A program made the position numbers and the translations under genes. From the NCBI GenBank assembly GCA_019338205.1, contig GCA_019338205.1_4761.1: a DNA stretch of 64,000 nucleotides. One strand, given 5' to 3'. Under the pieces are notes generated by a model. It saw only the letters and a list, made by a program, of their open reading frames with translations, ran no database searches and was not told where the DNA came from. Below are positions 4,959 through 64,000 of this stretch, in pieces (position 1 is the first letter of the stretch; every line of letters begins with the position of its first letter). This DNA is from a phage.

Positions 4959-5240
4959 ATGGTAGAAATTTTTGGTTTTGAAGGTTACAACTGTAAGTAT
5001 TGCCAGAATGCAAAGCGCCTTTGTGAATCGCGTAAGATCCCTTACATCTACATTCCGGTTAATGATGGTGTGGACGAAAACGGTCGCCCTGTAAAGATTG
5101 ATTCTATCATTGCCGATATTCAGGATCGCGCAGGGGTAGAAGTTATTGCCACCATGCCGCAGATTTTCTATGATGGTGATTATATTGGTGGCTTTGATGA
5201 GTTCCGATCCTTTGTAGTCAAAAACAAGATTCATGGTTAA
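4959..5240 (+). CDS. nrdC: NrdC-like thioredoxin/glutaredoxin
   Basis: CKYC redox motif near N-terminus, ~93 aa, position upstream of gene 49. Confidence 0.65.
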   Translation: MVEIFGFEGYNCKYCQNAKRLCESRKIPYIYIPVNDGVDENGRPVKIDSIIADIQDRAGVEVIATMPQIFYDGDYIGGFDEFRSFVVKNKIHG

Positions 5241-5741: not shown

Positions 5742-5770
5742 TTGACAATAAGAAATGGGAGTAGTAAAAT
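5742..5770 (+). promoter_or_regulatory. sigma70-like early promoter with GGGAGTA/TACTCCC inverted repeat across -10
   Basis: TTGACA 5742-5747, 17 bp spacer, TAAAAT 5765-5770. Confidence 0.6.
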
Positions 5771-5801
5771 ACTCCCATCTAATCAAGAAGGAGAATCAAC
5801 A

Positions 5802-6652: not shown

Positions 6653-6681
6653 TTGACATGATGAAACGGGAGTAGTAAGAT
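6653..6681 (+). promoter_or_regulatory. sigma70-like early promoter with GGGAGTA/TACTCCC inverted repeat
   Basis: TTGACA 6653-6658, 17 bp spacer, TAAGAT 6676-6681. Confidence 0.6.
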
Positions 6682-6712
6682 ACTCCCATCTAAACAACGA
6701 GAGGATTATATT

Positions 6713-7891: not shown

Positions 7892-7915
7892 CATGCGAAG
7901 GGAGTATGCTATAAT
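7888..7915 (+). promoter_or_regulatory. sigma70-like early promoter with GGGAGTA/TACTCCC inverted repeat
   Basis: TTGACA 7888-7893, TATAAT 7910-7915. Confidence 0.6.
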
Positions 7916-7945
7916 ACTCCCACTTAACAACGAGAGGATTATATT

Positions 7946-8449: not shown

Positions 8450-8471
8450 AGCGGGAGAAATCCCGCTTTTT
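8450..8471 (+). terminator. intrinsic terminator hairpin AGCGGGAGAAATCCCGCT + T-run
   Basis: stem-loop followed by TTTTT. Confidence 0.55.
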
Positions 8472-8484
8472 CATAGGTGATACA

Positions 8485-10347
8485 ATGGAAAAACTAATCA
8501 AAGACATTACAGAGATCGCAACGGGTAAAGAAAACGAAGTAAGCAAAGAGAACGCGAACAAAGACGCGCGAACATTCCCGACACGTCGAGATCTGATTGC
8601 TGGTGCTGTGTCTAAACAGATTGCTAAAACCGTGTTACCTGAGCACATCTATAAAGCGCATGTAGACGGTGATATTCATTATCATGATATGGATTATGCA
8701 CCCGCTATGCCGTTTACTAACTGCTGTCTTGTTAATCTAAAAGACATGTTAGAGAATGGTTTTAAATTGGGTAGCGCACAAATCGAAAGTCCGAAATCAA
8801 TCGGCGTTGCTTGTGCTGTAACCGCTCAAATTATCGCACAGGTGGCAAGTCATCAATATGGCGGGACCACAATTGCAAATATCGATCAGGTGTTAGCGCC
8901 GTATGTTGAGAAAACATATCATAAACACCTTGCTGATGCCGAAACCTACGGAATCAAAGCTAATACTCTCTATGCACAAGAGAAGACAGAAAAAGAAACG
9001 CTAGACGGATATCAGGCGTTGGAATATGAGATCAACACTTTGTTCTCTACCAACGGTCAAACACCTTTTGTGACTTTAACCTTTGGTATGGGTACTAGCT
9101 GGGAAGAAAAACTGATTCAGAAAGCGATCTTGAAAGTTAGAATTAAAGGTTTAGGTAAAGATGGTATAACTCCGGTGTTTCCTAAGCTGGTGATGTTCTT
9201 AGAAGAAGGATTAAACCTTAAACCGGAAGATCCGAACTACGACATTAAGCAACTTGCATTGGAATGTTCTAGTAAGCGTCTTTACCCTGATTATATCTCT
9301 GCGAAGAATAACCGTAGTATCACCGGATCTAGTGTTCCGGTTAGCCCGATGGGTTGTCGTAGCTTCCTGGGTGTGTGGCATAATGAGAAAGACGAGGAAG
9401 TATTAGACGGACGTAATAACTTAGGTGTTGTGACTCTGAATCTTCCGCGTATTGCCCTTATTGCCTCGCGTCGTGCTGGTAAAGCGTCTGTAATGCGCAG
9501 AATTGAGCTATTCGAACAAGAGCTAGCTAATCGTATGCCTATTTGCTTTGATGCGCTCATGAGTCGCGTAGACGCTTTAAAAGGGGCTAAAGCCAATGTT
9601 GCTCCGGTGCTGTATACAGAAGGTGCATTTTTCCGTATTCATCAAAACGATGAAATTTTGGAAGTGCTGAAAGATGGTCGCGCTAGTATCTCTCTTGGAT
9701 ATATTGGTTTACATGAGGTATTGAGCGTCCTGTTTGGTGTTCATCCGTTTGATTCGGAAGATGCGCAGCGATACGGTAAACATATTCTTAAGATCTTGCG
9801 TCATTATACTGAAAAATGGAAGGATGAAACCGGACTTGGGTTTAGTCTTTACGGTACGCCAGCCGAGAGCCTTTGCTATCGATTTAATCGACTGGATCGA
9901 GAGCAATTTGGTATTGTTAAGGGTGCTACCGATAAAGACTGGTACACTAACTCATTCCACCTTGACGTAGACCGGAAAGTCACACCATTTGAGAAAATCG
10001 ACTTTGAGAAAGATTATCACTGGCTGGCGTCCGGTGGCATGATCTCTTATGTTGAGTTCCCAGACATGAAAAACAACCTGAAAGGTCTTGAAACTGTAGT
10101 AGACTATGCAATGGATAAATTGCACTACTTCGGTGTTAATACTCCTTCTGATGTATGTCATGTATGCGGATCTAATAAGGAAATGAGAGCGACCGAGTCT
10201 GGTTTTGTTTGCCCTGATTGCGGCAATGACAATCTGGAAAAGATGAATGTTATCCGTCGCGTTAGTGGATATCTTGGATCTGTTGATCTGCGTCCATTTA
10301 ACCACGGGAAACATTCCGAGATGGTAAACCGCGTTAAGCACATGTAA
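8485..10347 (+). CDS. nrdD: anaerobic ribonucleoside-triphosphate reductase (NrdD)
   Basis: 620 aa; C-terminal Cys cluster CHVCG..CPDCG and glycyl-radical motif RVSGYLG; uninterrupted (no intron evident). Confidence 0.85.
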   Translation: MEKLIKDITEIATGKENEVSKENANKDARTFPTRRDLIAGAVSKQIAKTVLPEHIYKAHVDGDIHYHDMDYAPAMPFTNCCLVNLKDMLENGFKLGSAQIESPKSIGVACAVTAQIIAQVASHQYGGTTIANIDQVLAPYVEKTYHKHLADAETYGIKANTLYAQEKTEKETLDGYQALEYEINTLFSTNGQTPFVTLTFGMGTSWEEKLIQKAILKVRIKGLGKDGITPVFPKLVMFLEEGLNLKPEDPNYDIKQLALECSSKRLYPDYISAKNNRSITGSSVPVSPMGCRSFLGVWHNEKDEEVLDGRNNLGVVTLNLPRIALIASRRAGKASVMRRIELFEQELANRMPICFDALMSRVDALKGAKANVAPVLYTEGAFFRIHQNDEILEVLKDGRASISLGYIGLHEVLSVLFGVHPFDSEDAQRYGKHILKILRHYTEKWKDETGLGFSLYGTPAESLCYRFNRLDREQFGIVKGATDKDWYTNSFHLDVDRKVTPFEKIDFEKDYHWLASGGMISYVEFPDMKNNLKGLETVVDYAMDKLHYFGVNTPSDVCHVCGSNKEMRATESGFVCPDCGNDNLEKMNVIRRVSGYLGSVDLRPFNHGKHSEMVNRVKHM

Positions 10348-10352
10348 TTTTC

Positions 10353-10384
10353 AGCCGATCCGAAAGGGTCGGCTTTTTCGTTTT
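10353..10384 (+). terminator. intrinsic terminator
   Basis: AGCCGATCCGAAAGGGTCGGCT hairpin + TTTTTCGTTTT. Confidence 0.7.
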
Positions 10385-18971: not shown

Positions 18972-19000
18972 TTGACGCGGGGAGAAATCCCCGTTATACT
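18972..19000 (+). promoter_or_regulatory. sigma70-like promoter with spacer palindrome GCGGGGAGAAATCCCCG
   Basis: TTGACG 18972-18977, 17 bp spacer, TATACT 18995-19000. Confidence 0.55.
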
Positions 19001-42117: not shown

Positions 42118-42375
42118 ATGAGTCGAAGTTTTGATTTTCTGATCGCCAAGTGTCATCGAGAAAAGAAATCGATGGACCTGTTTATGGAGTGTTTGAGGTA
42201 TGAATATGCGCATCTTCGTAAACACAAAATTGACCCGCAGGTTTCCTACGAAAACATCAAGAAATATGCGAAAGAAGTGATTGACAACGATTGCACCGTG
42301 ACATATAATGCGTTTATTGATTTATGGGCTTGGGATGTAATCTACGCAGAGATGGACAAAGAAGATTTTAATTAA
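42118..42375 (+). CDS. hypothetical protein
   Basis: 85 aa ORF with AGGAG RBS. Confidence 0.45.
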   Translation: MSRSFDFLIAKCHREKKSMDLFMECLRYEYAHLRKHKIDPQVSYENIKKYAKEVIDNDCTVTYNAFIDLWAWDVIYAEMDKEDFN

Positions 42376-48680: not shown

Positions 48681-48690
48681 CTGATTATTA

Positions 48691-48721
48691 AGCCGATCCT
48701 TGTGGTCGGCTTTTTTATTTT
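48691..48721 (+). terminator. intrinsic terminator
   Basis: AGCCGATCCTTGTGGTCGGCT hairpin + TTTTTTATTTT. Confidence 0.75.
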
Positions 48722-49232: not shown

Positions 49233-49261
49233 TTGACGTAAAGAAACGGGAGTAGTAATAT
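49233..49261 (+). promoter_or_regulatory. sigma70-like promoter with GGGAGTA/TACTCCC inverted repeat
   Basis: TTGACG 49233-49238, 17 bp spacer, TAATAT 49256-49261. Confidence 0.55.
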
Positions 49262-49293
49262 ACTCCCATACCAAACGAAAGAAGGAGAATCAC

Positions 49294-49739: not shown

Positions 49740-49768
49740 TTGACACCGGATTAAGGGAGTAGTAAGAT
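49740..49768 (+). promoter_or_regulatory. sigma70-like promoter with GGGAGTA/TACTCCC inverted repeat
   Basis: TTGACA 49740-49745, 17 bp spacer, TAAGAT 49763-49768. Confidence 0.6.
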
Positions 49769-49802
49769 ACTCCCATCAAGACAAAACACTGAGGAATATA
49801 TT

Positions 49803-52578: not shown

Positions 52579-52823
52579 AATTAGAACAAGCGATTGTATA
52601 CTTTGAGATGGGCTATGATATTGCTCGTGTAGAGTGGGAAGATGGTGATTTTGTCCGATTGATTGATCTTCCAGAAACAGCTATTGCACTGGTCAAAGTA
52701 GAAAACGGCATACAACGCAATTACGCGTTTTCTGACGAAGACAAACAAGCCGATGACTGGTACGCTACATGTTTTCATCATACAGCGTCAAAATGCGATT
52801 CAGGCGCGTCTATGCGTCAATAA
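52575..52823 (+). CDS. hypothetical protein
   Basis: 82 aa ORF, last plus-strand gene before convergent terminator. Confidence 0.45.
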   Translation: MKLEQAIVYFEMGYDIARVEWEDGDFVRLIDLPETAIALVKVENGIQRNYAFSDEDKQADDWYATCFHHTASKCDSGASMRQ

Positions 52824-52858
52824 AAAAGAAGGGGAGGCCGAAAGGCTTCCCCTTTAAG
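52822..52858. terminator. bidirectional intrinsic terminator between convergent early (plus) and late (minus) units
   Basis: AAAAAAGAAGGGGAGGCCGAAAGGCTTCCCCTTTAAGTT: GC stem flanked by A-run and T-run. Confidence 0.75.
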
Positions 52859-53515
52859 TTATCTAATCCTTCCGAGGATTCTGGCAGATTGATTGCAAAG
52901 AGTATCTAAATTCTCAATGTCAATATCCGGTTTATTCTTCCATGCAATGGAGATACTACCAGAATAGACATTGTCGAGATTGAATATAGGACAAGAATAC
53001 ATAACCCCTATATCGATACTCTCTAATTTCTTTTCTCTTGATGGAATATACTGGAAATCTTTATCGGTAAAATAGGATTTACCTAAAAGATGCCTACGAT
53101 ATTCTTCACTCGTTTTATTGATAGGGAATCCGCCTAAATTCTTTTCGTCGATCGTATGAGGTAGCTTTCCTTCATATGCCACCAAATCAACAAAATAGTT
53201 TAGGTTTTTCGGACGAAAACTAAAAACAGCAGAAAAATCGGCATCAGCCGACACATGAACTATCTGTAACTGCTCCTGTGCTGCATTATCAAAATTGCGG
53301 TCTTTCTCTACCTGGAGAACGTGAGCATAAGTCTCATAACGAGTCTCTTTATAAAGCGCAAATAACTCGTTTTTACTATAAACGACAAATGCTAATATAG
53401 ACAACACGACGGCAGCAAAAACACGAAGTACGAGCAACTCCGTGCTTTTAGTTGTGAAAATAGCGCGCAGGACATTTGAGATAGCAAAGTCTTTCCCTTT
53501 TTCAGAAACTTGCAT
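52859..53515 (-). CDS. t: holin T
   Basis: 218 aa; QLQIVHVSADADFSAVFSFRPKNLNYFVDLVAYEGKLP, YSCPIFNLDNVYSG, ARILGR match T4 holin t as recalled. Confidence 0.85.
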   Translation of the reverse strand: MQVSEKGKDFAISNVLRAIFTTKSTELLVLRVFAAVVLSILAFVVYSKNELFALYKETRYETYAHVLQVEKDRNFDNAAQEQLQIVHVSADADFSAVFSFRPKNLNYFVDLVAYEGKLPHTIDEKNLGGFPINKTSEEYRRHLLGKSYFTDKDFQYIPSREKKLESIDIGVMYSCPIFNLDNVYSGSISIAWKNKPDIDIENLDTLCNQSARILGRIR

Positions 53516-53548
53516 ATAATGCCCTAAGATAACTATGACAGTGTACTC

Positions 53549-53788
53549 TTATTTAGGTACTTGACTATCACTAGGTTTATCTTGCTCGTTGCTATCTTCT
53601 GACTGATCTTTATTAAACTCCTTATAAAGTTCTTCCACAAAACGATCATCAATTGGCGTATTGGTATAAGCCGCAAGACGACGAGCGCAATAGAAGAAAA
53701 TTTTAGTGAGCATCTTTTCACTAATTAACTTTGACAATAGTTTCATTCCGAAATTAGACAAAGCACCAATGACGATATTATAGACCAT
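53549..53788 (-). CDS. hypothetical small protein upstream of holin
   Basis: 79 aa; AAGGAG RBS; amphipathic N-terminus, acidic C-terminus. Confidence 0.5.
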   Translation of the reverse strand: MVYNIVIGALSNFGMKLLSKLISEKMLTKIFFYCARRLAAYTNTPIDDRFVEELYKEFNKDQSEDSNEQDKPSDSQVPK

Positions 53789-53841
53789 AGCCGTTTCTCC
53801 TTAGTAGTTCCCTTCCCTGGGAGTTTTCCTTAATTCTTTTT

Positions 53842-54144
53842 TTAACGGTTGCTCAAGCGTCTATAACGAAGATGGGAAATACCCCTGTTTGTAGTTACCG
53901 TGATCGTTACTCCCTGCGGCACAATACAAGAATGGATCTGTCCCCAATCATGACCCTTATGACTTCCAGACACACAGAAGCCATGCAAAAGCAATTCTGA
54001 GTCACCACCGCCACCACCAGAAGAACTAGCACCAAATGAAACCGTACCGAAAGCGTCGGCTGTCCAACCGTTAGGAATATCAAACCATCCCTGATTCGCT
54101 TTACCGGCTTTATTGTCTAAAACTCCATACACCCAATATCCCAT
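53842..54144 (-). CDS. glycine-rich small protein, tandem paralog C
   Basis: MGYWV..GWFDIPNGW..GGGGG; AGGAG RBS; TAATG coupling to upstream paralog. Confidence 0.6.
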   Translation of the reverse strand: MGYWVYGVLDNKAGKANQGWFDIPNGWTADAFGTVSFGASSSGGGGGDSELLLHGFCVSGSHKGHDWGQIHSCIVPQGVTITVTTNRGISHLRYRRLSNR

Positions 54145-54449
54145 TAATGCATTCTCCTAAATTGGAAGTGGTTTAAACTTCCTTTACCAATACTAAAACT
54201 GACAGTAGCGCCAGCACCAACTAAAGAACTTGCTCCCCAACTTCCTGCATTACCAGCGTGATGACCTGATTCGAGAGTACCGTTTACATATAATTCTGCG
54301 TCCAGGTCACCACCGCCACCAACGGCTTCGGCATGAACAGACACAATACCGCATGAATCAGCCACCCAACCATTAGGGATACCAAACCACCCACCATTAG
54401 CATAAATGCTAATAGCATTAGCCATTCTTCCCGCAACCCATCCAGCCAT
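54144..54449 (-). CDS. glycine-rich small protein, tandem paralog B
   Basis: MAGWV..GWFGIPNGW..GGGG; GGAG RBS. Confidence 0.6.
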   Translation of the reverse strand: MAGWVAGRMANAISIYANGGWFGIPNGWVADSCGIVSVHAEAVGGGGDLDAELYVNGTLESGHHAGNAGSWGASSLVGAGATVSFSIGKGSLNHFQFRRMH

Positions 54450-54451
54450 AA

Positions 54452-54748
54452 TTAAAACTCCATAAATTTAAAGTATTCAATACCACCGCCACCACCATGA
54501 CCAAAGGTGACAGTACATCCAGCAGGAACAAACGCATTAACCGTAAATCCCCAATCCCCACCACCACGACGACGCGCGGCGACCACACCGTCAACGGAAA
54601 TATGAATATCACCCCAAACATCACGAGCGGTATGCCGCAAAACGGCAACACCAGCACGACCGGGGACATATCCATTAGGAATGTCAAATACATGCCATTT
54701 TACAGCATCGATTTTAGTTCCTTGTTCATTACTTACCCAATAGCCCAT
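54452..54748 (-). CDS. glycine-rich small protein, tandem paralog A
   Basis: MGYWV..FDIPNGY..GGG..GGGGG; AAGGA RBS after hairpin. Confidence 0.6.
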   Translation of the reverse strand: MGYWVSNEQGTKIDAVKWHVFDIPNGYVPGRAGVAVLRHTARDVWGDIHISVDGVVAARRRGGGDWGFTVNAFVPAGCTVTFGHGGGGGIEYFKFMEF

Positions 54749-54786
54749 TTAAAATCCTTAGCGGGGATTTCTCCCCGCTATTTAAA

Positions 54787-57700
54787 TTAACCAAATAATT
54801 TTGCTTCAATTGCAGCAAGACGATCATGAAGAATTTTATTTTCTTCTTTCAGACGGTTATTTTCTTCTTTAAGAAGTGCGATTTCTTCGGTGTGTTCGTT
54901 GATTGCCGCAGTATTTAAACCAATTACACCGTTATAGTTCAAACGAAGTAGAGCTTCGCCATCAGGGTCACCTTCAACTAATTCTGGTAAAATAGCTTGA
55001 ACTTCTTGAGCAATTAAACCGGCGTTAGGTTCCCATTTCTGATTGCCTTCTTCATCTAGGCCTCGCTTCTGCATATAAGTGTAACCATTAATTTTGGAAA
55101 GCCTCTCAGAAGCATTTTCAAATTTAACAAGGTCTTTTTTAACACGAATATCAGAACGAACATAAACATCGCGGACATATGTGGAATAGGAATCGCTTTG
55201 TTGGATTAAATGACCAAAAGAAATAATAGCTCTTCCGTGTTCAGTCCACAGAGCACCAGTGGTATCCCAAAGACCTTCATGGAGATGGTAAGCGGACGAC
55301 CATGAAGCAATATGCATTCCATTTGCAACCATATTGATTCGGCCGTCACCACCATGAACTAATCCAGTATCATTATCACCAATAACAACACATGCGCCTG
55401 TCCATACAGGGTCACCTCCACCAGCTGATACTCTTACTCCAGCTTTAACCATGTCAGGAACGTACATGTTTCCATTATGGTGGAATTCGAAGACAGCTTG
55501 CGGATCAGAACCATTTTCCTGGTTACCTACACGAATAATACCTTGTGCCCAGTTATTAGGAATGCGTCGCATACCAAAATCAACGCCAGAAAAATATCCT
55601 TCGTTAGTAATACCAGATTTTCCTTTAATAATAGGGTAATAGCAGTCATTACCGACATAACCAAAATCCACAAATATAGGAGCTTCTTGACGCCATTGAT
55701 TTCCCCAATCGCCGGCCTGGTGTGCGATCCATTGTGTACCGTTTATATGAAGGCGGTCTCTATTAAAATTAAATGTTCCTTGTCCTTGAGGAGAAAGCGA
55801 TATTTCGCCGTTATTTGTTATGTATACAGCGCCTTGTGTAATGTAACTGTAAAAGCCTAGACCATTGTCACCACCGCCTTTGCCTATATACCAGTTACCT
55901 GTACCGTCTATGTCACCACGAATATGCAAAGAATTACTAGCAGTTGTTGATAATACAATAGAATCACCCGGACGTTTAATAATCAATCTACCTTCGGATT
56001 CAACTTCACCAAAAAATTTAGTCTTAATTGCACCAGTCGCTAAAGTACGTTCAGTGGAAAAATGAACGCCTTTGCTATCTTCTAACTGGATGATGTTATC
56101 ACGAGCATTATTACTATCACCCCAATGGTTAAATTTAAAATAATCTCGTGATCCTAAACGTCCGGCGTCAAAAATCATCAAGCCTTTCATGTTAATATCA
56201 CCACCAAAAAATGCGGTGAGAGAATCACATTTTAATTTTAAAACGTTAGCACGACTAGTACCACCTAAAGAAACATCACCAGTGCTAAATTCATAACTGA
56301 AAGGTCTATTTGTATTAAAGTTTCCATCTTTATCATTTTCGTCGGTGGAAAGAATATAAAGACGCGAGCTATCAGCACGGAAAATTGTACCAAAATTTCC
56401 GCCATACATACGGAAAGCATTAGCTGGGCGGAATTTAACTTCTGCGTTAAAAGTTGTAGTTGATTTAAACGTGGTTGCAGCACCGAAGTTAACTGCACCA
56501 TTAAAATCTTGTTGAGCTGTCCATGTATGGCGACCATCTTCAAGAACAACACGACGAACTCTGCAACTTCTATTTCCCGGATTACCAGCAACACGAACGA
56601 CAAAATAACGGTAGTTATTTTGTGTCACAGTACCGCGCCAAACCTGAACAGTACGCCCTGTGCTAGTGTGTTCGCTAGGACCGACGGAAAACAGAATCAA
56701 GTTTTCATCAATCGTGCCCCAATCCATATTTTCTGGCATGTTCTTTATTTTGTTCAAAGGAACGCTAAACATACTACCGGGGACAAAATCAAAAGTTTGC
56801 CAATCTAACTCTGTTAATTTAGATTTAACACCACCCATACCCAAAGTAATTGGCATAGAATAGGACGTATATACTTCGTACCAATTGCCCCAGATGTTAT
56901 TTGTCATCGCACGTTCAAACACGCGAGATCGCGTAGTTTCACCCGTTCCTGCGGTAGTGAAACGTTGGAAAATAGCGCCGCCGGAAGCACGCTGTTTAAC
57001 CTCAAGCAATCCGGTCATCTCAACCGGAACACCTTCTGCAACTGGACGGTTAATAACGGCATCAGTGCCTAAAATATTATATAAGCCAGGAGAACGAAAA
57101 TTATTAAGATCCCCGTCATAAAATGTGCTGGGAGTAACCATGCCTACTTGTTGCCACGGTCCCCAATTCGGAGCTTCTGGATCCCATGCACCAGCAAGAC
57201 AACGAACATATACAACACCCATTCGGGTAGTATAACGTTGCGTGCGAGAATAGTTACCACCTTCATAAATTTCTAAAAGACCTTGCGCGAGACCACCTTC
57301 TTCTGGGTAATTTCGAGAAAATGATGCAATGGAACTTGAACTATTTCGCCATAACCCAAAATGAGAAGCATCACCTAAAGTATTCAAGTCTAGTGTAGTT
57401 GATAGTGGACGTGTGCCAGTTTGAATATTGCGCCACGGACCCCATGGACCATCTACGCCATTCCATTTCGCGGACAAAGAACGGATATAAACGTTACCAG
57501 ACCGAACCGTATAACGCTGAGTGCCAGCAAATTGACCAGCCACAAATACTTCTAATACACCTACAGCATTCTCTTCTGGGAATTTATTTGCTGGCTGCGC
57601 ATTTGTTGAAGTTGATTTAGACCAAACGCCAGTAAATTTACCAGTAGGTCCATAATTATCTAAATTTGCATCAGATGGCAACTCACCGCGAAAGTGTCCC

Positions 57701-57849
57701 AAAGTAATTACATTATTGCTGTCATCTTTTGTATATAGTTCTCGATCCGCTAGGTTAATAGCAAGTTCACCCGGAGTTAGAATATTCGCATCCGGCTTGC
57801 GACCTGCCGTACTTGTTCTTTTAAATTGGATTCTCTGTAAATCTGCCAT
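54787..57849 (-). CDS. 37: long tail fibre distal subunit gp37 with C-terminal intramolecular chaperone-like domain
   Basis: N-terminus MADLQRIQFKRTSTAG..GELAINL like T4 gp37; C-terminus SDIRVKKDL..GYTYMQK..GLIAQEV..coiled coil resembles peptidase S74-type chaperone domains. Confidence 0.8.
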   Translation of the reverse strand: MADLQRIQFKRTSTAGRKPDANILTPGELAINLADRELYTKDDSNNVITLGHFRGELPSDANLDNYGPTGKFTGVWSKSTSTNAQPANKFPEENAVGVLEVFVAGQFAGTQRYTVRSGNVYIRSLSAKWNGVDGPWGPWRNIQTGTRPLSTTLDLNTLGDASHFGLWRNSSSSIASFSRNYPEEGGLAQGLLEIYEGGNYSRTQRYTTRMGVVYVRCLAGAWDPEAPNWGPWQQVGMVTPSTFYDGDLNNFRSPGLYNILGTDAVINRPVAEGVPVEMTGLLEVKQRASGGAIFQRFTTAGTGETTRSRVFERAMTNNIWGNWYEVYTSYSMPITLGMGGVKSKLTELDWQTFDFVPGSMFSVPLNKIKNMPENMDWGTIDENLILFSVGPSEHTSTGRTVQVWRGTVTQNNYRYFVVRVAGNPGNRSCRVRRVVLEDGRHTWTAQQDFNGAVNFGAATTFKSTTTFNAEVKFRPANAFRMYGGNFGTIFRADSSRLYILSTDENDKDGNFNTNRPFSYEFSTGDVSLGGTSRANVLKLKCDSLTAFFGGDINMKGLMIFDAGRLGSRDYFKFNHWGDSNNARDNIIQLEDSKGVHFSTERTLATGAIKTKFFGEVESEGRLIIKRPGDSIVLSTTASNSLHIRGDIDGTGNWYIGKGGGDNGLGFYSYITQGAVYITNNGEISLSPQGQGTFNFNRDRLHINGTQWIAHQAGDWGNQWRQEAPIFVDFGYVGNDCYYPIIKGKSGITNEGYFSGVDFGMRRIPNNWAQGIIRVGNQENGSDPQAVFEFHHNGNMYVPDMVKAGVRVSAGGGDPVWTGACVVIGDNDTGLVHGGDGRINMVANGMHIASWSSAYHLHEGLWDTTGALWTEHGRAIISFGHLIQQSDSYSTYVRDVYVRSDIRVKKDLVKFENASERLSKINGYTYMQKRGLDEEGNQKWEPNAGLIAQEVQAILPELVEGDPDGEALLRLNYNGVIGLNTAAINEHTEEIALLKEENNRLKEENKILHDRLAAIEAKLFG

Positions 57850-57916
57850 TTTATAAAATCCTTAACGGTTGTTAGAATAATATTATTTAGAAAAGCGGGG
57901 ATTATCCCCGCTAGAA

Positions 57917-59407
57917 TTAGAAAGTACCAAAATCAATTACCGCATTAAGCGGAACCGCGCCAACTTCGGCAGGGGTAGGTTTGTGTCCTTCGTGGTATAA
58001 TTCAAATGTATCGGTGTCCTGAGTATTGTTGCGTGATTTAACGAAAATAATTTTAGAATCATGTGTGATGCCTAGTTTCTCGTGCGCTTTAATATCACTA
58101 ACACGATGAATCATTGCTGTGCCATCTAAGCTATTAAGTCCAGCGTAGCAATTATCACCATTATAGTTAGCTTTTGCGGTACGAACGCCGTTTGCAGCGG
58201 GAACTGTCAAAGCACCTCTCATGGTATCGCCAGTAACATTAACATAGCGAGCATCAGCCAATTTACGGTTATCTACATAGTTCCATGCAGTCCATGATTC
58301 ATTAGAACAAGAACGCCAGCACATCGGATGATCAATAGATTCAGGATAGTATACCTGAACAATTCGACGAGTACCGACCGCATCTTCTGGGCGATATACC
58401 ATCAAAACGCCGTTATAATAGCTATCAGACGGTTTATTAGTACCTGATCCAGCATTTTCCACACGATAGATACCGCGATTAATAAGAGTGTTCCAATCAA
58501 CGTTTCCAATGATTGTTGGATTTGCTACCATTGATTTTTTCTCAAAGTAGCTCAAACGAACCAATTCATTAGGACCAGCAGGATCGTTTGTCGCCAACAT
58601 TCTAGGCGCTTGCAAGTTACCTTCCATAATATCACCAGCACGTTTAACCTGTGCATCATTGGTGACATTGCCTAGCCCAACATCGGCTTTAGTTGGTTTA
58701 TTGTTGGTGTGATAAAAACGACCTTCTCTGCCATTAACAAAAATGGTAGGCTCATCTTTACTTCGGAAGACCAACGTATCAAGAACGTTACCATAATAGA
58801 TCTTAGTCGCATCAAAATTAATTAAATCACGTTCCCTTGCAATTAATTTCGAATCAACCGATAGTTTAACAGTGACAGTGTTTAAATTATATGTTCCTGT
58901 GAGAGTATCACCGCGACGAGACACCAAATCTAAATCATTATTCGTTGGTTTATTAACAGGGCTATAGACGCGTTGACCTGTGTCTTTAATGGTTGTCCCT
59001 TCGATAGTCCCTTTAGACTTAAATTCGCCCGTTGTGGTGTCAATATACGCCATAATAACGCCATCACGGGCATTAACAAAGCCGATTGACTTCCATGAAT
59101 GCAAACCCCAGCTTACGCCGTCAAAATTAGCAGCGTCGCTCTGACCTTTAAAGATACCATTCTTTTTGGTTTCTCCAGCCGATGCGCTACCTACGCTTAA
59201 ACCTTCCTCGAAATGAACTTGCTTTTGAAATGTGCCACCTTCGGATGCACTAACAGCATCAAAATCGGTAGCCGAAGGTCTATCAAAAGCGGTATAGATT
59301 TTATGACCTTTGTAGAAAAGCTGATCCCCCGCTGGCTGGATCGTCAAGTTTCCTTGCGTCCAAATGGGAGATCCACCTACAGTAGATCCATATTTCAAAT
59401 CTGCCAT
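57917..59407 (-). CDS. 36: long tail fibre subunit gp36 (extended, 496 aa)
   Basis: N-terminus MADLKYGSTVGGSPIWTQGN..PAGD like T4 gp36; synteny. Confidence 0.7.
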   Translation of the reverse strand: MADLKYGSTVGGSPIWTQGNLTIQPAGDQLFYKGHKIYTAFDRPSATDFDAVSASEGGTFQKQVHFEEGLSVGSASAGETKKNGIFKGQSDAANFDGVSWGLHSWKSIGFVNARDGVIMAYIDTTTGEFKSKGTIEGTTIKDTGQRVYSPVNKPTNNDLDLVSRRGDTLTGTYNLNTVTVKLSVDSKLIARERDLINFDATKIYYGNVLDTLVFRSKDEPTIFVNGREGRFYHTNNKPTKADVGLGNVTNDAQVKRAGDIMEGNLQAPRMLATNDPAGPNELVRLSYFEKKSMVANPTIIGNVDWNTLINRGIYRVENAGSGTNKPSDSYYNGVLMVYRPEDAVGTRRIVQVYYPESIDHPMCWRSCSNESWTAWNYVDNRKLADARYVNVTGDTMRGALTVPAANGVRTAKANYNGDNCYAGLNSLDGTAMIHRVSDIKAHEKLGITHDSKIIFVKSRNNTQDTDTFELYHEGHKPTPAEVGAVPLNAVIDFGTF

Positions 59408-59440
59408 AAAGTAACCTCAAAAATTAGTTATAGTTCCGAG

Positions 59441-59448
59441 TATTTATA
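59441..59448 (-). promoter_or_regulatory. T4-type late promoter TATAAATA upstream of gene 36
   Basis: reverse complement of plus TATTTATA; 33 nt upstream of gp36 ATG; gp55 is present in window. Confidence 0.55.
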
Positions 59449-59567
59449 GAATGTTAACAAAATATCGCTTCGCGACGTGCCGTAGGCACTGACTAATTTT
59501 TAACCGAAACAAACTTTTCTATATTCTAAAGATCTTTCTTCGTTTTGGTTACATTTTAACCAACTGT

Positions 59568-59599
59568 ATAAAAATAAAGCCGACCACATGGATCGGCTT
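59568..59599 (-). terminator. intrinsic terminator after gene 35
   Basis: minus strand AGCCGATCCATGTGGTCGGCT + TTTATTTTTAT. Confidence 0.7.
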
Positions 59600-59609
59600 G
59601 TTAAAAATG

Positions 59610-60749
59610 TTAATCAACATCGAACTCTTTAAAGTTGTTGGATGTGATGTGTTTATTATCTCTAGGAAGTTTAAGAAGACTCATTACAGGGTTAGTAAAA
59701 TCACCGTTATCCTGAATATGAGTTGTTCTAACACCATTAACACCAAATGAAGTAGGACCAGTAGTTTTGACGACTCCACTGATCGGCGTTATTAGTATGT
59801 TTCTAATTTTAACAATACCTTCATTTGAGTTGGTTGGATATCTGATACAACCAGTTACTACACTATCGACACCTTCCGGCACGGTATAGACGGCTTCAAA
59901 CTTTTCCCATTGGTCTTTTTTGCTGGCATTGTATCGAACACCAGTTTTATATTGTCCATCGGTGAAGTAGTTGTGATAGAAACGCGCTGTTACGTTGGCT
60001 GCGGCTGCGGCACTATCACGGAACAATTCAAATGATAATGATAGTTTGTCACCTGCCTTTATGTTAAAATATTCAAGTGGTGCGCTGATCTCATCATGAG
60101 GCCATTGTATTAGCTCGAAATGTTCGGCATCTTCACTAACATACTCAACCGGATAATCTAAAAATCGTTGTGGTGTTCCTGTTATAGCAAGATCATCTAT
60201 AGTATCATAGACTTTCTCAATTTGTATAGATGAATCTTGTCCTTCCCCGTGGGTCGCTTGCATCCCTTCGCACACAATTTTACCCATTTTAGTAGAATAA
60301 ATTGCTGCATAGGATACACGAGGCATTTGCTGTAGCAAAATGTGATTCGGGAATGATACAGATCCCATCTTAGAAAATACAACATCACTTATCGGATCTG
60401 CAAACAATTCTCCATGCGTTGCCATCGCAATGATATAGTCACCTTTCAGCAAAGAAAGATAATCACGCATTGCCAAAACAGCACCGCGACCATAGAATAC
60501 CTTTTCTTCGTGTAGTTGTCCAGTTGGAGTAAGAACTTTAAAATTTAGGCCATTTTCATAGCCAGTGCCAACGATCTCCACTCCATTAAATCTAATCCTT
60601 GCTGGTTTGGTAGAATCCGCATTAGATCCGCGAACTTCCAGCTTATACATCACAGAGTTATTTTCTGAAATGCTGGTAAATGTCGCAGAGTCTTCGTCGA
60701 AATGCGCAAACCTAATTCCAGTGTTGCGTAATTCTATATCTTGTGTCAT
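59610..60749 (-). CDS. 35: long tail fibre hinge subunit gp35
   Basis: 379 aa; position between gp34 and gp36. Confidence 0.6.
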   Translation of the reverse strand: MTQDIELRNTGIRFAHFDEDSATFTSISENNSVMYKLEVRGSNADSTKPARIRFNGVEIVGTGYENGLNFKVLTPTGQLHEEKVFYGRGAVLAMRDYLSLLKGDYIIAMATHGELFADPISDVVFSKMGSVSFPNHILLQQMPRVSYAAIYSTKMGKIVCEGMQATHGEGQDSSIQIEKVYDTIDDLAITGTPQRFLDYPVEYVSEDAEHFELIQWPHDEISAPLEYFNIKAGDKLSLSFELFRDSAAAAANVTARFYHNYFTDGQYKTGVRYNASKKDQWEKFEAVYTVPEGVDSVVTGCIRYPTNSNEGIVKIRNILITPISGVVKTTGPTSFGVNGVRTTHIQDNGDFTNPVMSLLKLPRDNKHITSNNFKEFDVD

Positions 60750-60783
60750 AATAACCCCATAGGGGGACTTTCGCCCCCTTTAA

Positions 60784-63700
60784 TTAGTCTTCCCAGATAA
60801 AGTCTACGGTACGAGTCAGATTATTGGCGATGATTTTAACATTACCAACTTTGATCCAATCACGAACCGTCATAGAGTTCATTAAACCACCTTCTGCAAC
60901 TACTGCCCCGATTTCCTGAGCGGTAGGCTTATTCTGTTTGGTGTAAATTTCACCCCATGCGGTCCATTGACCACCAGTACCGGAACGGATATAATGTTTA
61001 TGAGTACCATCGGGGGACCAAAGCTGGGTAAGCCCGTCCGCGTCAGTACCCCATTGCATCAGAGTACCGTTTTTCTTCTCTGGATAAGTTTCTTTGATGT
61101 TCTGGGTAGAAACGCGCATATTCCAGAAACCGATGTTACCAATTGCTGGTGCAGTAGTAGCGATCGCTTCATGCTTAACTGATACAATAGACGCATTATC
61201 CATAATCAATTTACCAGTCATTGTATCACCAGCATTCTTAACAAACTGACGATTAAGAACTTCGTCTGCGTTTCCTGCGTGGACGATCTGATATTTCTGT
61301 CCGGCAATCTCTGTAGTAAGCGTCTGATAACCTGCTTTGATGTTAACACTTCCACCGTGACCGATATTCAGCATACCATCTGGGGAACGAGTCATTGCCG
61401 GATTAGACTGGTCAACAATGTATAAACCGCCTTGTTTCGCATACAGGTTGCGACCTGCAATAAAGTCTCTATATGCTGTCGCGTCGCCATTGTGTTTCAT
61501 AGCAAAGGCGTAATGCTCAACGACTCCACCATCATTGATTTTACCGAAAGCGATAGCATCACTATCAACAACTTGCGCTGTTCCAGTACCACCAACGATA
61601 ATAGACCATGAGTTTTTCATGCCTTCCGATGCGGTTGTGCCATGCAGAGTAATTCCGGTGTGTCCGTCAACTCCACGCTCACCCAACACCAGATGACCAT
61701 TACTCGGATCATCAGTAGAGTTCTTAGTCACAGACAGAGTTTCAAAGGAACCAGATTTTAAACAATCTAAATCGCCCTTCACGTTAACGTTTTTATTAAA
61801 CGTGTAATTGCTCTCAATGGTCTGGTCAATGTCTCTACGCGCCCATTTAGCGGCCTCTACGTCACCCAATTTCAAACTATTCTGAGCGGTTGCCATCTTA
61901 GGTAAGAAATTAGCAAGTGCGTAGTTTAATCCTTTAGGGGTAACAGCAATTCCGTCATGCTGGTAGTTTCCTAGTTCTTGAGTAGAACCTTGCAGATTGT
62001 CACCAACAAAACAGTTTTCCTGAGTAGCAACTTTCAAGAAACCACGACGAGCTTCGGTTGCTTTCCATGTATCCTCTGTCTGAACAACATATTTGAAGTT
62101 CTTCGGAGAAATTGCTACATTAGCCAGTGTACCAGCCACGGTTTCGGCTTGAGTACCAACGCGGATAATACCTTCTTTACCTTCGGTGGCCTTTTTGCCT
62201 TGCAGCTTTTTAGGAGTGATGATTGTAGTATCATCTTGACCAACATCCGTAAGCTGAGTAGTAGCAACTTTAGCGACACCTTTTGTGTCTTCGGTTGCAT
62301 CAAGACCTCTGATCATGATACCTTGCCACAAGTCACCAGTAAGGTTAAGCCCCTGAGTCGGGTCTACTTTCAAACGCTGTGCATTCTCAAAGAAGGTTTT
62401 AATCTTCAATGGGGTAGAAATGCGAGCATCGTCACGACCTGCGTCAAACTCTTCTTGAGTTGCAATTTCTGCTAAACCATGTAAAGTTTCCGTTGCGCGG
62501 CGAGTATGCAGCTTTTTAGGCGTGATGATATGGTTATCACTTTGACCTAAGTTTGTTTCTTCCTGAGTTGCAATTTCAGCGATACCAGTACGCGATTCGG
62601 TAGCAGTACGTTTCGTTAGCGTGCGAGTCGTGATTAGTAAAGCATCTTGCGGGGTTGATTCTGTAGCCCCTTGCACTTCCGCGTCAGTTGCCAGATACCC
62701 AACACCACGGGAAGTTTCGGTCGCCTTAACTTCGTTGATGTTTTGCGGAGTAACGATTTTAGCGTGGTCATTGATGTTATAGATCCCTGTACCAGCTTCA
62801 CCCCTTAGAGCGGCAGCATTACCGCCTACCTGAACAATTTCAGCGATACCAGCAAGATCCTCTGACGCTCGACGCTCTTCTAACTTCTTAGGAGTGATTG
62901 CGCGGGTATCGTCTAAACCTTCGTTGGTTTCATGTTGAGTTGCAATTTCCATCACACCACGACGGTCTTCGGTAGCAACACAGTCATTTAACTTTTTAGG
63001 TGTAACGATAACATCATCCAGGAAGCTGGAACCAGTATCTTGATGCGTTTCCGCTTGAGTTGCAATGCGAGCAATACCGCGTCGAGTTTCGTTGGCTGTT
63101 TTATTAGCCAGAACCTTTGGAGTCACCGCAACTTCGTCGCTAGGATTCTCTTCATGGTTTTTATTCGTTTCAGTCTGGGTAGCCAGTGCAATTACACCAA
63201 CACGATCTTTACGAGTCGGATCTACTCGTTCTACAATCGGGTGAGCATGTGCCACCAACCAGTATTTCTTACCATCATCACCTTCTGAATAAGAGAACTC
63301 CAGATAAGGTACATAATCATTTGCAGCGTTGAAAGACAATTCAGATACTCCCGTCCATGTATCGGTCCCATTGAATGGGTACTCGCTACGCTTAGGAAAC
63401 TGAACCGTGTTTTTCTGCATAAGGATTTTTGTATCCTCTTCTGAGGTAATGATTCGGCAAGTCTGGTTTCCGCGCATATACTGCATAGAAACTTGAATAC
63501 GATCACCCGGCTCGACATTGGTCGGTAAAGTCAAGGTAACATCACGATCACCAAATACTGCAACATAGCTATTAGGGGATAAGCGAGTATCACTAATGAT
63601 AGGATTCAAGCGAACAGACTGATCACCATCCCACAAACGCCATAAGTTTTCCGGTTTGTCAAATATGAATACACCATGACCGCTACGCTTACCAACAATT

Positions 63701-64000
63701 TCTTTTACCCCGAAAGTACCGATCGATTGTTCTTGCGCACCTTCATGCACTTTTACCGTAACATGGTTGGTTGCAGTCAATCCGTCAAGATCGGTAGTCT
63801 GGATCATATCACCGTTATTAGCAAACTTAGGAAGCATCAAAACAATGTTACCCAAAGAACTACGGCGGAATACCTGATCACCGTTTTGCATCTGGATCGG
63901 GTCGATAGATGGTTGTGCATATACCCCGCGTGGCTCCGTTCCCGTCTGGTAAACGTGCCAGCGATTGCGAACAAAAATGAAGTAGTTCATTGCATAAGGG
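60784..64000 (-). CDS. 34: long tail fibre proximal subunit gp34 (5' end beyond window)
   Basis: FPKRSEYP, repeated TPKKL..ATE.RRG..IATQ units, C-terminus RDWIKVGNVKII like T4 gp34; ORF open to window edge. Confidence 0.85.
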   Translation of the reverse strand, partial: PYAMNYFIFVRNRWHVYQTGTEPRGVYAQPSIDPIQMQNGDQVFRRSSLGNIVLMLPKFANNGDMIQTTDLDGLTATNHVTVKVHEGAQEQSIGTFGVKEIVGKRSGHGVFIFDKPENLWRLWDGDQSVRLNPIISDTRLSPNSYVAVFGDRDVTLTLPTNVEPGDRIQVSMQYMRGNQTCRIITSEEDTKILMQKNTVQFPKRSEYPFNGTDTWTGVSELSFNAANDYVPYLEFSYSEGDDGKKYWLVAHAHPIVERVDPTRKDRVGVIALATQTETNKNHEENPSDEVAVTPKVLANKTANETRRGIARIATQAETHQDTGSSFLDDVIVTPKKLNDCVATEDRRGVMEIATQHETNEGLDDTRAITPKKLEERRASEDLAGIAEIVQVGGNAAALRGEAGTGIYNINDHAKIVTPQNINEVKATETSRGVGYLATDAEVQGATESTPQDALLITTRTLTKRTATESRTGIAEIATQEETNLGQSDNHIITPKKLHTRRATETLHGLAEIATQEEFDAGRDDARISTPLKIKTFFENAQRLKVDPTQGLNLTGDLWQGIMIRGLDATEDTKGVAKVATTQLTDVGQDDTTIITPKKLQGKKATEGKEGIIRVGTQAETVAGTLANVAISPKNFKYVVQTEDTWKATEARRGFLKVATQENCFVGDNLQGSTQELGNYQHDGIAVTPKGLNYALANFLPKMATAQNSLKLGDVEAAKWARRDIDQTIESNYTFNKNVNVKGDLDCLKSGSFETLSVTKNSTDDPSNGHLVLGERGVDGHTGITLHGTTASEGMKNSWSIIVGGTGTAQVVDSDAIAFGKINDGGVVEHYAFAMKHNGDATAYRDFIAGRNLYAKQGGLYIVDQSNPAMTRSPDGMLNIGHGGSVNIKAGYQTLTTEIAGQKYQIVHAGNADEVLNRQFVKNAGDTMTGKLIMDNASIVSVKHEAIATTAPAIGNIGFWNMRVSTQNIKETYPEKKNGTLMQWGTDADGLTQLWSPDGTHKHYIRSGTGGQWTAWGEIYTKQNKPTAQEIGAVVAEGGLMNSMTVRDWIKVGNVKIIANNLTRTVDFIWED

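Follow-up and report, generated by a model that had tools for sequence, protein, structure and literature searches.

The closest described counterparts of the hairpins studied here are the PeSLs (promoter-early stem-loops) of RB49 and phi1 (Arbiol et al. 2010, PMC2839356; Comeau et al. 2014, PMC4122927), which belong to the same genus and have the same type of G(n)-loop-C(n) stem. According to Arbiol 2010 (PMC2839356), the U-less RB49 stem-loop PeSL211/210 (AGGGGAT-cacgt-ATCCCCT) lowered the expression of a downstream lacZ to a similar extent as rrnB T1, a reduction that could come from changes in mRNA or in translation and not from termination. The rho-independent terminators predicted in RB49 include those at 19-->20, 13-->14 and 35-->36 (Nolan et al. 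2006, PMC1524935). The GCGGGGA stem of the present hairpins is found again in RB49 at the gp18/gp19 junction (AGCGGGGA-gaaaa-TCCCCGCT, without a U-run and 4 nt before TAAGGA), at gp19/gp20 (GCGGGGA-gaagt-TCCCCGC, also without a U-run) and after gp54, where AAAGGCGGGGA-taa-TCCCCGCCTTT followed by TTATTTT forms a bidirectional terminator; related GGGGG stems are found at 13/14 (a GGGGGA stem) and 34/35. The terminator list of Nolan et al. 2006 (PMC1524935) has no entry for the RB49 34/35 and 18/19 hairpins.

T4 offers a second set of counterparts. Extra-stable tetraloop hairpins, C(UUCG)G and GNRA, are said to have been described in T4 intercistronic regions by Tuerk et al. in 1988. Like the hairpins considered here, they are intercistronic GC stems closed, in the mRNA, by a GNRA or UNCG loop, which is mainly UUCG in T4 and mainly GAAA in the present phage. 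At the T4 35/36 junction a UUCG hairpin is followed by a U-run and by TATAAATA, and the 34/35 and 36/37 junctions consist of 8-nt gaps without a hairpin. Bacterial stem-loops that stabilise mRNA act either by protection of the 5' terminus, as in ompA, or as 3' barriers of the REP or malEFG type, and the mRNA of T4 gene 32 has RNase E processing sites beside stem-loops.

The DNA analysed here (referred to as the window) is a stretch of 64,000 nucleotides assigned to the genus Krischvirus (RB49/phi1-like T4-type coliphages), with an identity of 95-97% to RB49, phi1, vB_EcoM_011D4 and other Krischvirus members. A preliminary description of the window had reported five hairpins, named A to E below. 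All five are present in the sequence, and the genes to which they were assigned (gp34/gp35, gp36/gp37, gp37/Gly-rich ORF and nrdD) were correctly identified; the coordinates were exact for C and D but off by 2-3 nt for A, B and E (54757-54776 was given for A and 57892-57910 for B). On the late strand the order is gp34, hairpin E, gp35, gp36, hairpin B, gp37, hairpin A and the small ORFs, and the features used in the following are:

1-52,840, plus strand: early and middle genes
8450..8467, plus strand: hairpin C, AGCGGGA-GAAA-UCCCGCU followed by 4-5 U and a C, a predicted intrinsic terminator
18972..19000, plus strand: PeSL with hairpin D, an early promoter of the sigma-70 type with near-consensus hexamers, TTGACG (18972-18977) and TATACT (18995-19000) being separated by a 17-nt spacer
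18978-18993, plus strand: hairpin D, CGGGGA-GAAA-UCCCCG, filling the promoter spacer (6 bp, or 7 with the flanking A/T)
52828..52855, both strands: strong bidirectional terminator at which the early (plus) and late (minus) units converge (-23.2 kcal/mol; annotated in GEC-3S and RB49)
52,860-64,000, minus strand: late genes
53515-52859, minus strand: 79-aa ORF and holin t
53828..54846, minus strand: fibre-tip cassette of about 1.0 kb, comprising the last ~60 nt of gp37, hairpin A and three Gly-rich ORFs
54748-53842, minus strand: the three Gly-rich ORFs, of ~100 aa each
54760..54779, minus strand: hairpin A, AGCGGGGA-tttc-TCCCCGCT on the plus strand and AGCGGGGA-GAAA-UCCCCGCU in the late RNA
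57849-54787, minus strand: gp37, then hairpin A
57884..57891, minus strand: TCTAAATA, candidate late promoter for gp37, matching TATAAATA at 7 of 8 positions
57894..57912, minus strand: hairpin B, AGCGGGGA-tta-TCCCCGCT on the plus strand and AGCGGGGA-UAA-UCCCCGCU then UUUC in the late RNA
59407-57917, minus strand: gp36, then hairpin B
59441..59448, minus strand: late promoter TATAAATA upstream of gp36, corresponding to the predicted RB49 late promoter Pl:150089
59577..59599, minus strand: canonical intrinsic terminator after gp35, AAGCCGAUC-CAUGU-GGUCGGCUU then UAUUUUUAU, matching the RB49 '35-->36' terminator
60749-59610, minus strand: gp35
60761..60779, minus strand: hairpin E, AGGGGGC-GAAA-G(U)CCCCCU in the late RNA, with a U (T) bulge
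...60784, minus strand: gp34, then hairpin E

The late fibre/holin transcription unit ends at the 52828-52855 terminator. Hairpins A, B, D and E are intergenic GC-rich stem-loops of the G(n)-loop-C(n) type upstream of an SD and start codon, and C lies upstream of nrdD.

The repeated GC-rich hairpins are real and exceed chance. Perfect GC-rich hairpins number 17 in the window against 2.0 +/- 1.4 in dinucleotide shuffles (an 8-fold enrichment), the palindrome GCGGGGA-N3-6-TCCCCGC occurs twice against an expectation of 0.00, and the strong hairpins found in an energy scan of the window are mostly intergenic. The frequency of the motif, on which the preliminary description had made its recurrent family depend, is likewise above expectation, with 4 copies of AGCGGGGA against 0.69. 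Nearly the same 8-bp stem had been claimed for A to D, but an identical one, AGCGGGGA/TCCCCGCT, is shared by A and B only; the stem of C is a G shorter, at 7 bp, and that of D has 6 bp. A Krischvirus-specific motif is ruled out, the exact stem being found in at least 120 unrelated IMG/VR viral contigs, with flanking U or A runs in roughly half of them, a number that is about what chance would give in so large a collection and hence uninformative on enrichment. Searches with Rfam covariance models returned 0 matches at the gathering threshold over the whole window, and 0 at E <= 1 over 52700-61000.

Hairpin B begins 4 nt past the gp36 stop codon, reads AGCGGGGAUAAUCCCCGCUUUUCUAAAUAAU on the late strand and is followed by a short U-run (GCUUUUC, that is 4 U counting the last base of the stem), the SD lying 29 nt further downstream. 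The late hairpins had been described as placed just 5' of the SD, devoid of a U-run and not simple terminators, which is correct for A and E but not for B. As an intrinsic terminator B is borderline and was missed by a strict terminator scan; the orthologous RB49 site is the TransTerm terminator '36-->37', with a score of 100 (Nolan et al. 2006, PMC1524935, Additional file 6). The G2248 record annotates A, B and E as putative terminators, and B is annotated as a terminator in GEC-3S and TB34 as well. B is thus considered as a predicted intrinsic terminator or attenuator. Like the terminators predicted in RB49 by TransTerm, B and C are GC-rich stems just past a stop codon, with a U-run in C and a short one in B; E and the RB49 18/19 hairpin differ from these terminators by the lack of a U-tract in the tail.

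Directly after the U-run of B, 34 nt upstream of the gp37 ATG, stands TCTAAATA, a candidate late promoter that would probably serve gp37; the spacing from TATAAATA to gp36 nearly equals that from TCTAAATA to gp37. Neither octamer is frequent in the window, where TATAAATA has a single copy against 5.3 expected (the sole consensus copy) and TCTAAATA a single copy against 4.3. Over ~164 kb TCTAAATA has 3 copies, all oriented in the sense direction, upstream of gp37, of an endolysin-like ORF and of gene 32, and the identical octamer upstream of gene 32 is labelled 'late RB49 promoter' in the RB49 record AY343333. The HMM list of RB49 late promoters of Nolan et al. 2006 has no entry between genes 36 and 37. 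In late promoters of the T4 type TATAAATA occupies positions -13 to -6, and a C at -12, as carried by TCTAAATA, is reported as rare outside Aeh1. By analogy with the T4 35/36 junction, where a hairpin, a U-run and a late promoter follow each other in the arrangement proposed here for B, hairpin B would probably act, where gp36 ends, as an intrinsic terminator of partial effect, and TCTAAATA would re-initiate late transcription for gp37. A reading of the loops of B (TAA/TTA) and of the gp38-type junction hairpin (AAT/ATT) as 'flips' produced by inversion was rejected, each being a single central transversion.

Hairpins A and E are of another kind. A begins 7 nt past the gp37 stop codon and its 3' end adjoins the SD AAGGA (54755-54759) of the first small Gly-rich ORF, the late-strand tail being AAGGAUUUUAAAUG; E begins 4 nt past the stop codon of gp34, its GGGGG core 5 nt past it, and is separated by 3 nt from the gp35 SD (GGGG), with UAUGGGGUUAUUAUG as its late-strand tail. 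Both tails are without a U-run, and efficient intrinsic termination in E. coli needs a U-tract. In A, B and E the SD is 3' of the hairpin, with a normal spacing of 5-8 nt between SD and ATG. A split RBS like that of T4 genes 38 and 25 was therefore rejected; in the T4 37/38 hairpin the stem lies between SD and AUG, whereas hairpin A is upstream of its SD. Programmed frameshift, read-through and bypass were also rejected, as no in-frame slippery site was found at the stop-proximal hairpins and each of the downstream ORFs starts from an SD and ATG of its own and is kept as a separate gene. The idea that the A junction is a deleted copy of the B junction was unconvincing, the shared TAAGGATTTTA being merely an extended SD consensus.

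Such a position between stop codon and SD, which the RB49 18/19 and 13/14 hairpins have too, would also suit translational devices, in which the hairpin insulates the RBS from de novo 30S loading and the terminating ribosome melts the stem, thereby coupling the two cistrons; in a variant with the opposite effect, for E, the CCCCC arm, once released, could bind the GGGG SD and reduce the synthesis of gp35. This is what the stop-hairpin-SD geometry of A and E suggests, together with the RB49 18/19 hairpin ending 4 nt before UAAGGA, the RBS-proximal hairpins that tune translation of T4 genes 38, 25, e and soc, and the extension of hairpin A (core folding energy -17.4 kcal/mol) into a helix taking in the AUG, predicted in the window at -22.6 kcal/mol (z = -3.7). 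However, the extended helix is not kept in G2248 and an AUG-sequestering structure around A was consequently discarded, B and the RB49 19/20 hairpin are 17-29 nt from the SD, the SD is never within the stem, and the same stems are plain terminators elsewhere. We consider a translational role as unlikely for these hairpins.

The strand on which the hairpins are selected is indicated by their loops. Among the hairpins with 4-nt loops in the window and in positions 50-145 kb of RB49 (~159 kb altogether), 14-15 carry a GNRA or UNCG loop on the sense strand and 0 on the antisense strand (binomial p of 6e-5 to 1e-4), GAAA being by far the most frequent loop. The sense-strand loop of A, C, D and E is GAAA; that of B is a UAA triloop and no stable tetraloop. 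The stem of hairpin A leads to the same strand: it is kept across 12 cassette copies with changes of the G·U type only (G for A at the outer pair, U for C in the 3' arm), which are G·U pairs on the sense RNA and would be A·C mismatches on the opposite strand. Over 10 distinct versions of the cassette, pairing on the sense strand holds in 80 of 80 stem cells. This second line of evidence is supportive but modest because it contains no compensatory double changes. The tetraloop bias and the G·U-only changes taken together point to selection on the hairpins at the level of the sense-strand RNA, and the proposal of a recurrent family acting as RNA is supported on this point.

The same observations bear on the possibility that the hairpins terminate antisense ('anti-late') transcripts that run into the late genes from early-strand transcription. 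On the opposite strand the AU-rich spacers at the stop codons would read as U-rich tails, and the plus-strand tails of A (TTTAAATT, caught by the terminator scan) and E (TTTAATT) are of this kind. Against it, the GNRA loops of A and E are on the late sense strand and read UUUC on the plus strand, the substitutions in A would break pairing there, B has no plus-strand T-run, and the bidirectional terminator at the convergence of the two units already closes the early unit. Termination of antisense transcripts is accordingly held to be quite improbable.

Hairpin A is part of a cassette with a history of its own. The three Gly-rich ORFs of the cassette are paralogous, and its gp37 part is the C-terminus of the Peptidase_S74 intramolecular-chaperone domain. 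The cassette is 79-97% identical to copies in E. coli prophages and in 4 other Krischvirus phages; it was found in chromosomal prophages of 24 of 5,426 complete E. coli genomes, and IMG/VR prophage contigs carry it too. In the prophages it is placed after an unrelated tail fibre of 1,176 aa, in a siphovirus-type late operon with the layout capsid, fibre, three ORFs, tail tube and tail tip. Judging from these matches, the fibre-tip cassette is horizontally shared and mobile, and hairpin A travels with it; the hairpin is not present in RB49. A scan of genome contigs with the small ORF gave no genuine relative, and the gp35-based scan of IMG/VR recovered only 3 loci. The loops vary (GAAA, GAGA, GAAAA, CGAAAA and one inverted UUUC), the last variant being a true inversion of GAAA to TTTC in the hairpin A of UPWr_E1.

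The persistence of hairpin A in phages without T4-type proteins argues for a role that uses host machinery. The suggestion that the hairpins are binding sites for a phage factor is made unlikely by this retention in E. coli siphovirus prophages, by the loops, which vary and in one case are inverted, by the variable distance between the arms, and by the frequent occurrence of the same stem as a terminator in the unrelated viral contigs.

A role at the DNA level was also considered, with the inverted repeats as recombination linkers or phage-protein binding sites in the swapping of fibre modules, by analogy with PeSL shuffling. Arbiol et al. (PMC2839356) speculated that GGGG...CCCC may be the target of a DNA-binding recombination protein, the distal fibre locus has three alternative module forms within Krischvirus, and the inverted loop in UPWr_E1 shows that the arms can recombine or template-switch. 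The homology boundaries, however, lie elsewhere, and the hairpins were rejected as recombination breakpoints: divergence of gp37 starts 30-105 nt inside the gene, and prophage homology starts 58 nt inside gp37, which leaves hairpin A internal to the block and off its edges. Moreover, the tetraloop strand bias and the G·U-only changes contradict a strand-symmetric function, the spacing of the arms is variable (3 to 5 nt), and hairpin A is maintained in the siphovirus prophages in spite of their lack of T4-type proteins. With regard to the PeSLs, A, B and E are located in late operons, share the stem-loop component only and are away from module breakpoints. A DNA-level function is very improbable on these grounds.

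Conservation is informative to different degrees for the late hairpins. Over 12 Krischvirus genomes B and E show little or no variation, which is uninformative because their flanks are equally conserved (93-98% identical). The GGGGGC-GAAA-GCCCCC stem of E is perfect in most of the 11 relatives; the lengths of the G and C runs vary in three of them (L001, L002 and L009), and the extra T is found in the window only. Hairpin A, on the other hand, is retained while its flanks diverge, the cassettes being only about 80% identical. Chance palindromes or hitch-hiking remnants of recombination, without any function, would fit the identity of the Krischvirus flanks and the absence of hairpins at the same junctions in T4; since the fibre genes of T4 are expressed although 34/35 and 36/37 have no hairpin there, the hairpins at these junctions are dispensable in principle and represent lineage-specific refinements. 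The 8-fold enrichment over shuffles, the intergenic placement, the sense-strand bias of the stable tetraloops and the preservation of A amid diverging flanks all stand against an absence of function, to which we give hardly any credence.

Our reading is that the hairpins are GC-rich (GGGG...CCCC) stem-loops of the sense mRNA, of a type found throughout the genomes of RB49-like phages, and it is probable that they punctuate transcription units through the host machinery, most likely as terminators, attenuators or stabilisers of mRNA ends; at A, B and E the biochemical outcome would be termination, stabilisation or both. A and E, along with the RB49 18/19 and 19/20 hairpins, would most likely be U-less attenuators and exonuclease barriers. 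Very AU-rich spacers (UAAUU...) usually attract RNase E, and the hairpins are flanked by single-stranded spacers of this sort between cistrons, as are stem-loops that stabilise operon mRNA. The layout would fit cleavage by RNase E followed by protection against exonucleases, the likeness to stabilising stem-loops being one of architecture only. In such a scheme the hairpin A or E would stabilise the upstream message at its 3' end, a cut within the AU-rich spacer would leave the downstream message with a hairpin-protected 5' end, and the relative levels of the adjacent cistrons would be modulated.

The preliminary description had proposed that the hairpins may set the dosage of fibre subunits, a possible role, though one that agrees poorly with virion stoichiometry. 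T4 virions contain gp34 and gp35 in a 3:1 ratio and gp19 and gp20 at about 138:12, whereas gp18 and gp19, and likewise gp36 and gp37, are equimolar. The copy number in the virion thus falls across the hairpin junctions 34/35 and 19/20 but not across 18/19 and 36/37. It is unlikely, in our opinion, that the U-less hairpins between stop codon and SD (A, E, RB49 18/19 and 13/14, with the GCGGGGA stem in several cases) constitute a distinct portable late-mRNA device for subunit ratios. In one form of this proposal RNase E would cut the UAAUU spacer and the hairpin would be a protective 5' cap for the downstream cistron; in the other the hairpin would be a ribosome-coupling switch, either form setting the subunit ratios for tail and fibre assembly. 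Portability is suggested by the movement of hairpin A with the cassette between siphovirus prophages and virulent T4-like phages.

The hairpins are largely ordinary, that is, they fall within the described set of stable promoter-embedded stem-loops, attenuators and terminators between the genes of RB49-like phages. A and E add new, uncharacterised members to the known GC-rich, stable-tetraloop intercistronic hairpins of RB49-like and T4-like phages. The present yield is mainly a tidying of the annotation (a known PeSL for D, a known predicted terminator for C, a predicted terminator with a probable gp37 late promoter behind it for B, and unexceptional intercistronic hairpins for A and E). If the late hairpins do tune the ratios of adjacent tail and fibre proteins, they would provide simple portable dosage parts for engineered phages, for example in the swapping of receptor-binding modules, and would add late-gene examples to the regulatory stem-loops of RB49-like phages.

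The two early sites had been correctly recognised as a terminator before nrdD and as a stem in a promoter spacer, but they are not special elements. C, 18 nt upstream of nrdD (ORF 8485-10347, identified as NrdD by the Pfam family NRDD), reads as a canonical intrinsic terminator and would act as such; it is the site of the RB49 TransTerm terminator 'nrdD<--RB49ORF057c' (Nolan et al. 2006, PMC1524935, Additional file 6). D, placed after a gp47-like ORF, has the makeup of a textbook PeSL of the subclass 'SLS between -35 and -10' (Arbiol 2010, PMC2839356), and its hairpin would be the attenuator stem of a promoter-plus-attenuator cassette. A scan of 52700-64000 for sigma-70 promoters gave 25 sites against 25.9 expected and none that encloses A, B or E. 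The sole overlap is a 9/12 match at B, which takes the variable loop as its '-10' and is unconserved in relatives. The layout of D recurs in the window at 1845, 11544 and 49522, and upstream of nrdA in RB49; the other PeSL subclass, with the -10 box in the loop (GGGAGTAGTAAGATACTCCC), is found at 5755, 6668, 7900, 49248 and 49755.

Re-use of a stem was also found elsewhere in the window, where another stem, AAGCCGATCC...GGTCGGCTT, recurs and, with a T-run behind it, forms a terminator at three sites distributed over the early and late strands:

10353-10374, plus strand, AAGCCGATCC...GGTCGGCTT terminator
48690-48712, plus strand, AAGCCGATCC...GGTCGGCTT terminator
59577-59599, minus strand, AAGCCGATCC...GGTCGGCTT terminator

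AGCGGGGA is therefore no special case: repeated use of a single stem sequence is a general feature of this genome. Five near-identical hairpins, GGGAGTA-gtaaNat-TACTCCC, are also present on the plus strand:

5755-5778, plus strand, GGGAGTA...TACTCCC hairpin
6668-6687, plus strand, GGGAGTA...TACTCCC hairpin
7900-7921, plus strand, GGGAGTA...TACTCCC hairpin
49248-49267, plus strand, GGGAGTA...TACTCCC hairpin
49755-49774, plus strand, GGGAGTA...TACTCCC hairpin

Their loop contains a -10-like TAAGAT or TAATAT, and they are a subclass of PeSL (promoter-early stem-loop, a sigma-70-type promoter with a stem-loop) in which the stem-loop overlaps the -10 box.

Hairpin A, located between gp37 and the first small glycine-rich ORF (54760-54779, minus strand), carries the loop TTTC at the equivalent site of phage UPWr_E1 versus GAAA in the window (late strand). 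The four loop nucleotides of UPWr_E1 are inverted, giving the exact reverse complement, while both arms are conserved; template switching, or else a recombination event involving the two 8-bp arms, presumably caused the change. A longer helix is predicted around hairpin A in the window (54746-54793, minus strand; -22.6 kcal/mol, z = -3.7), in which AUUUAAA pairs with UUUAAAU and the AUG of the first small ORF is included in the pairing. It is probably incidental, judging from the sequence of G2248, because the flanking pairing is broken in that genome. In hairpin E, between gp34 and gp35 (60761-60779, minus strand), the window has one additional T (GAAAGTCCCCC) that creates a bulge and is absent from all 11 relatives examined. 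Most of these have the perfect stem GGGGGC-GAAA-GCCCCC, and length changes in the G/C runs were found at three loci (L001, L002 and L009).

The distal-fibre region (window 52859-57849; loci L005, L006, L009, L010, L011, L001 and L008) exists in the genus as three alternative modules:

Module 1, gp37 alone: RB49, GEC-3S
Module 2, gp37 and a gp38-type adhesin of 260 aa: FL04, KMB43, phiS
Module 3, gp37 and three small ORFs: window, G2248, UPWr_E1, G37-3

Divergence sets in 30-105 nt within gp37. The gp38-type adhesin of FL04, KMB43 and phiS is preceded by a hairpin of its own, AAGGGGGC-nnn-GCCCCCTT. The small ORFs of the window are as follows:

53842-54748, minus strand, three tandem paralogous glycine-rich ORFs of about 100 aa each, downstream of gp37

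The gp37 upstream of them ends C-terminally in a Peptidase_S74 intramolecular chaperone. The three ORFs share 28% mutual identity and the motifs W-V and F-x-IPNG; none matched a Pfam family or had detectable similarity to the gp38 adhesin, and the first gave a single, weak and unannotated PHROG match. Among 5,426 E. coli genomes, 24 have prophages with the same trio, there downstream of an unrelated tail fibre. It may be a fibre-tip or adhesin accessory set.

Two octamers were considered as late promoters:

59441-59448, window, minus strand, consensus late promoter TATAAATA
57884-57891, window, minus strand, TCTAAATA
5134-5141, L142 (RB49), minus strand, TCTAAATA
42181-42188, L143, minus strand, TCTAAATA

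The single copy of TATAAATA in the 64-kb window, versus 5.3 expected, shows that this octamer is avoided outside functional sites. TCTAAATA has the behaviour of a variant late promoter. The window is depleted of it (1 copy versus 4.3 expected), and in about 164 kb it occurs three times, always sense-oriented and 5' of a gene: once at gp37, once at the endolysin-like ORF102c and once at gene 32. The copy at gene 32 bears a late promoter annotation in the RB49 record AY343333. An internal TATAAATA also lies, with several strong hairpins, in a 503-nt non-coding gap of RB49 behind the major capsid gene, between gene 23 and ORF162w (L142 44865-45367). With a predicted fold of -133 kcal/mol, this gap might encode a structured RNA.
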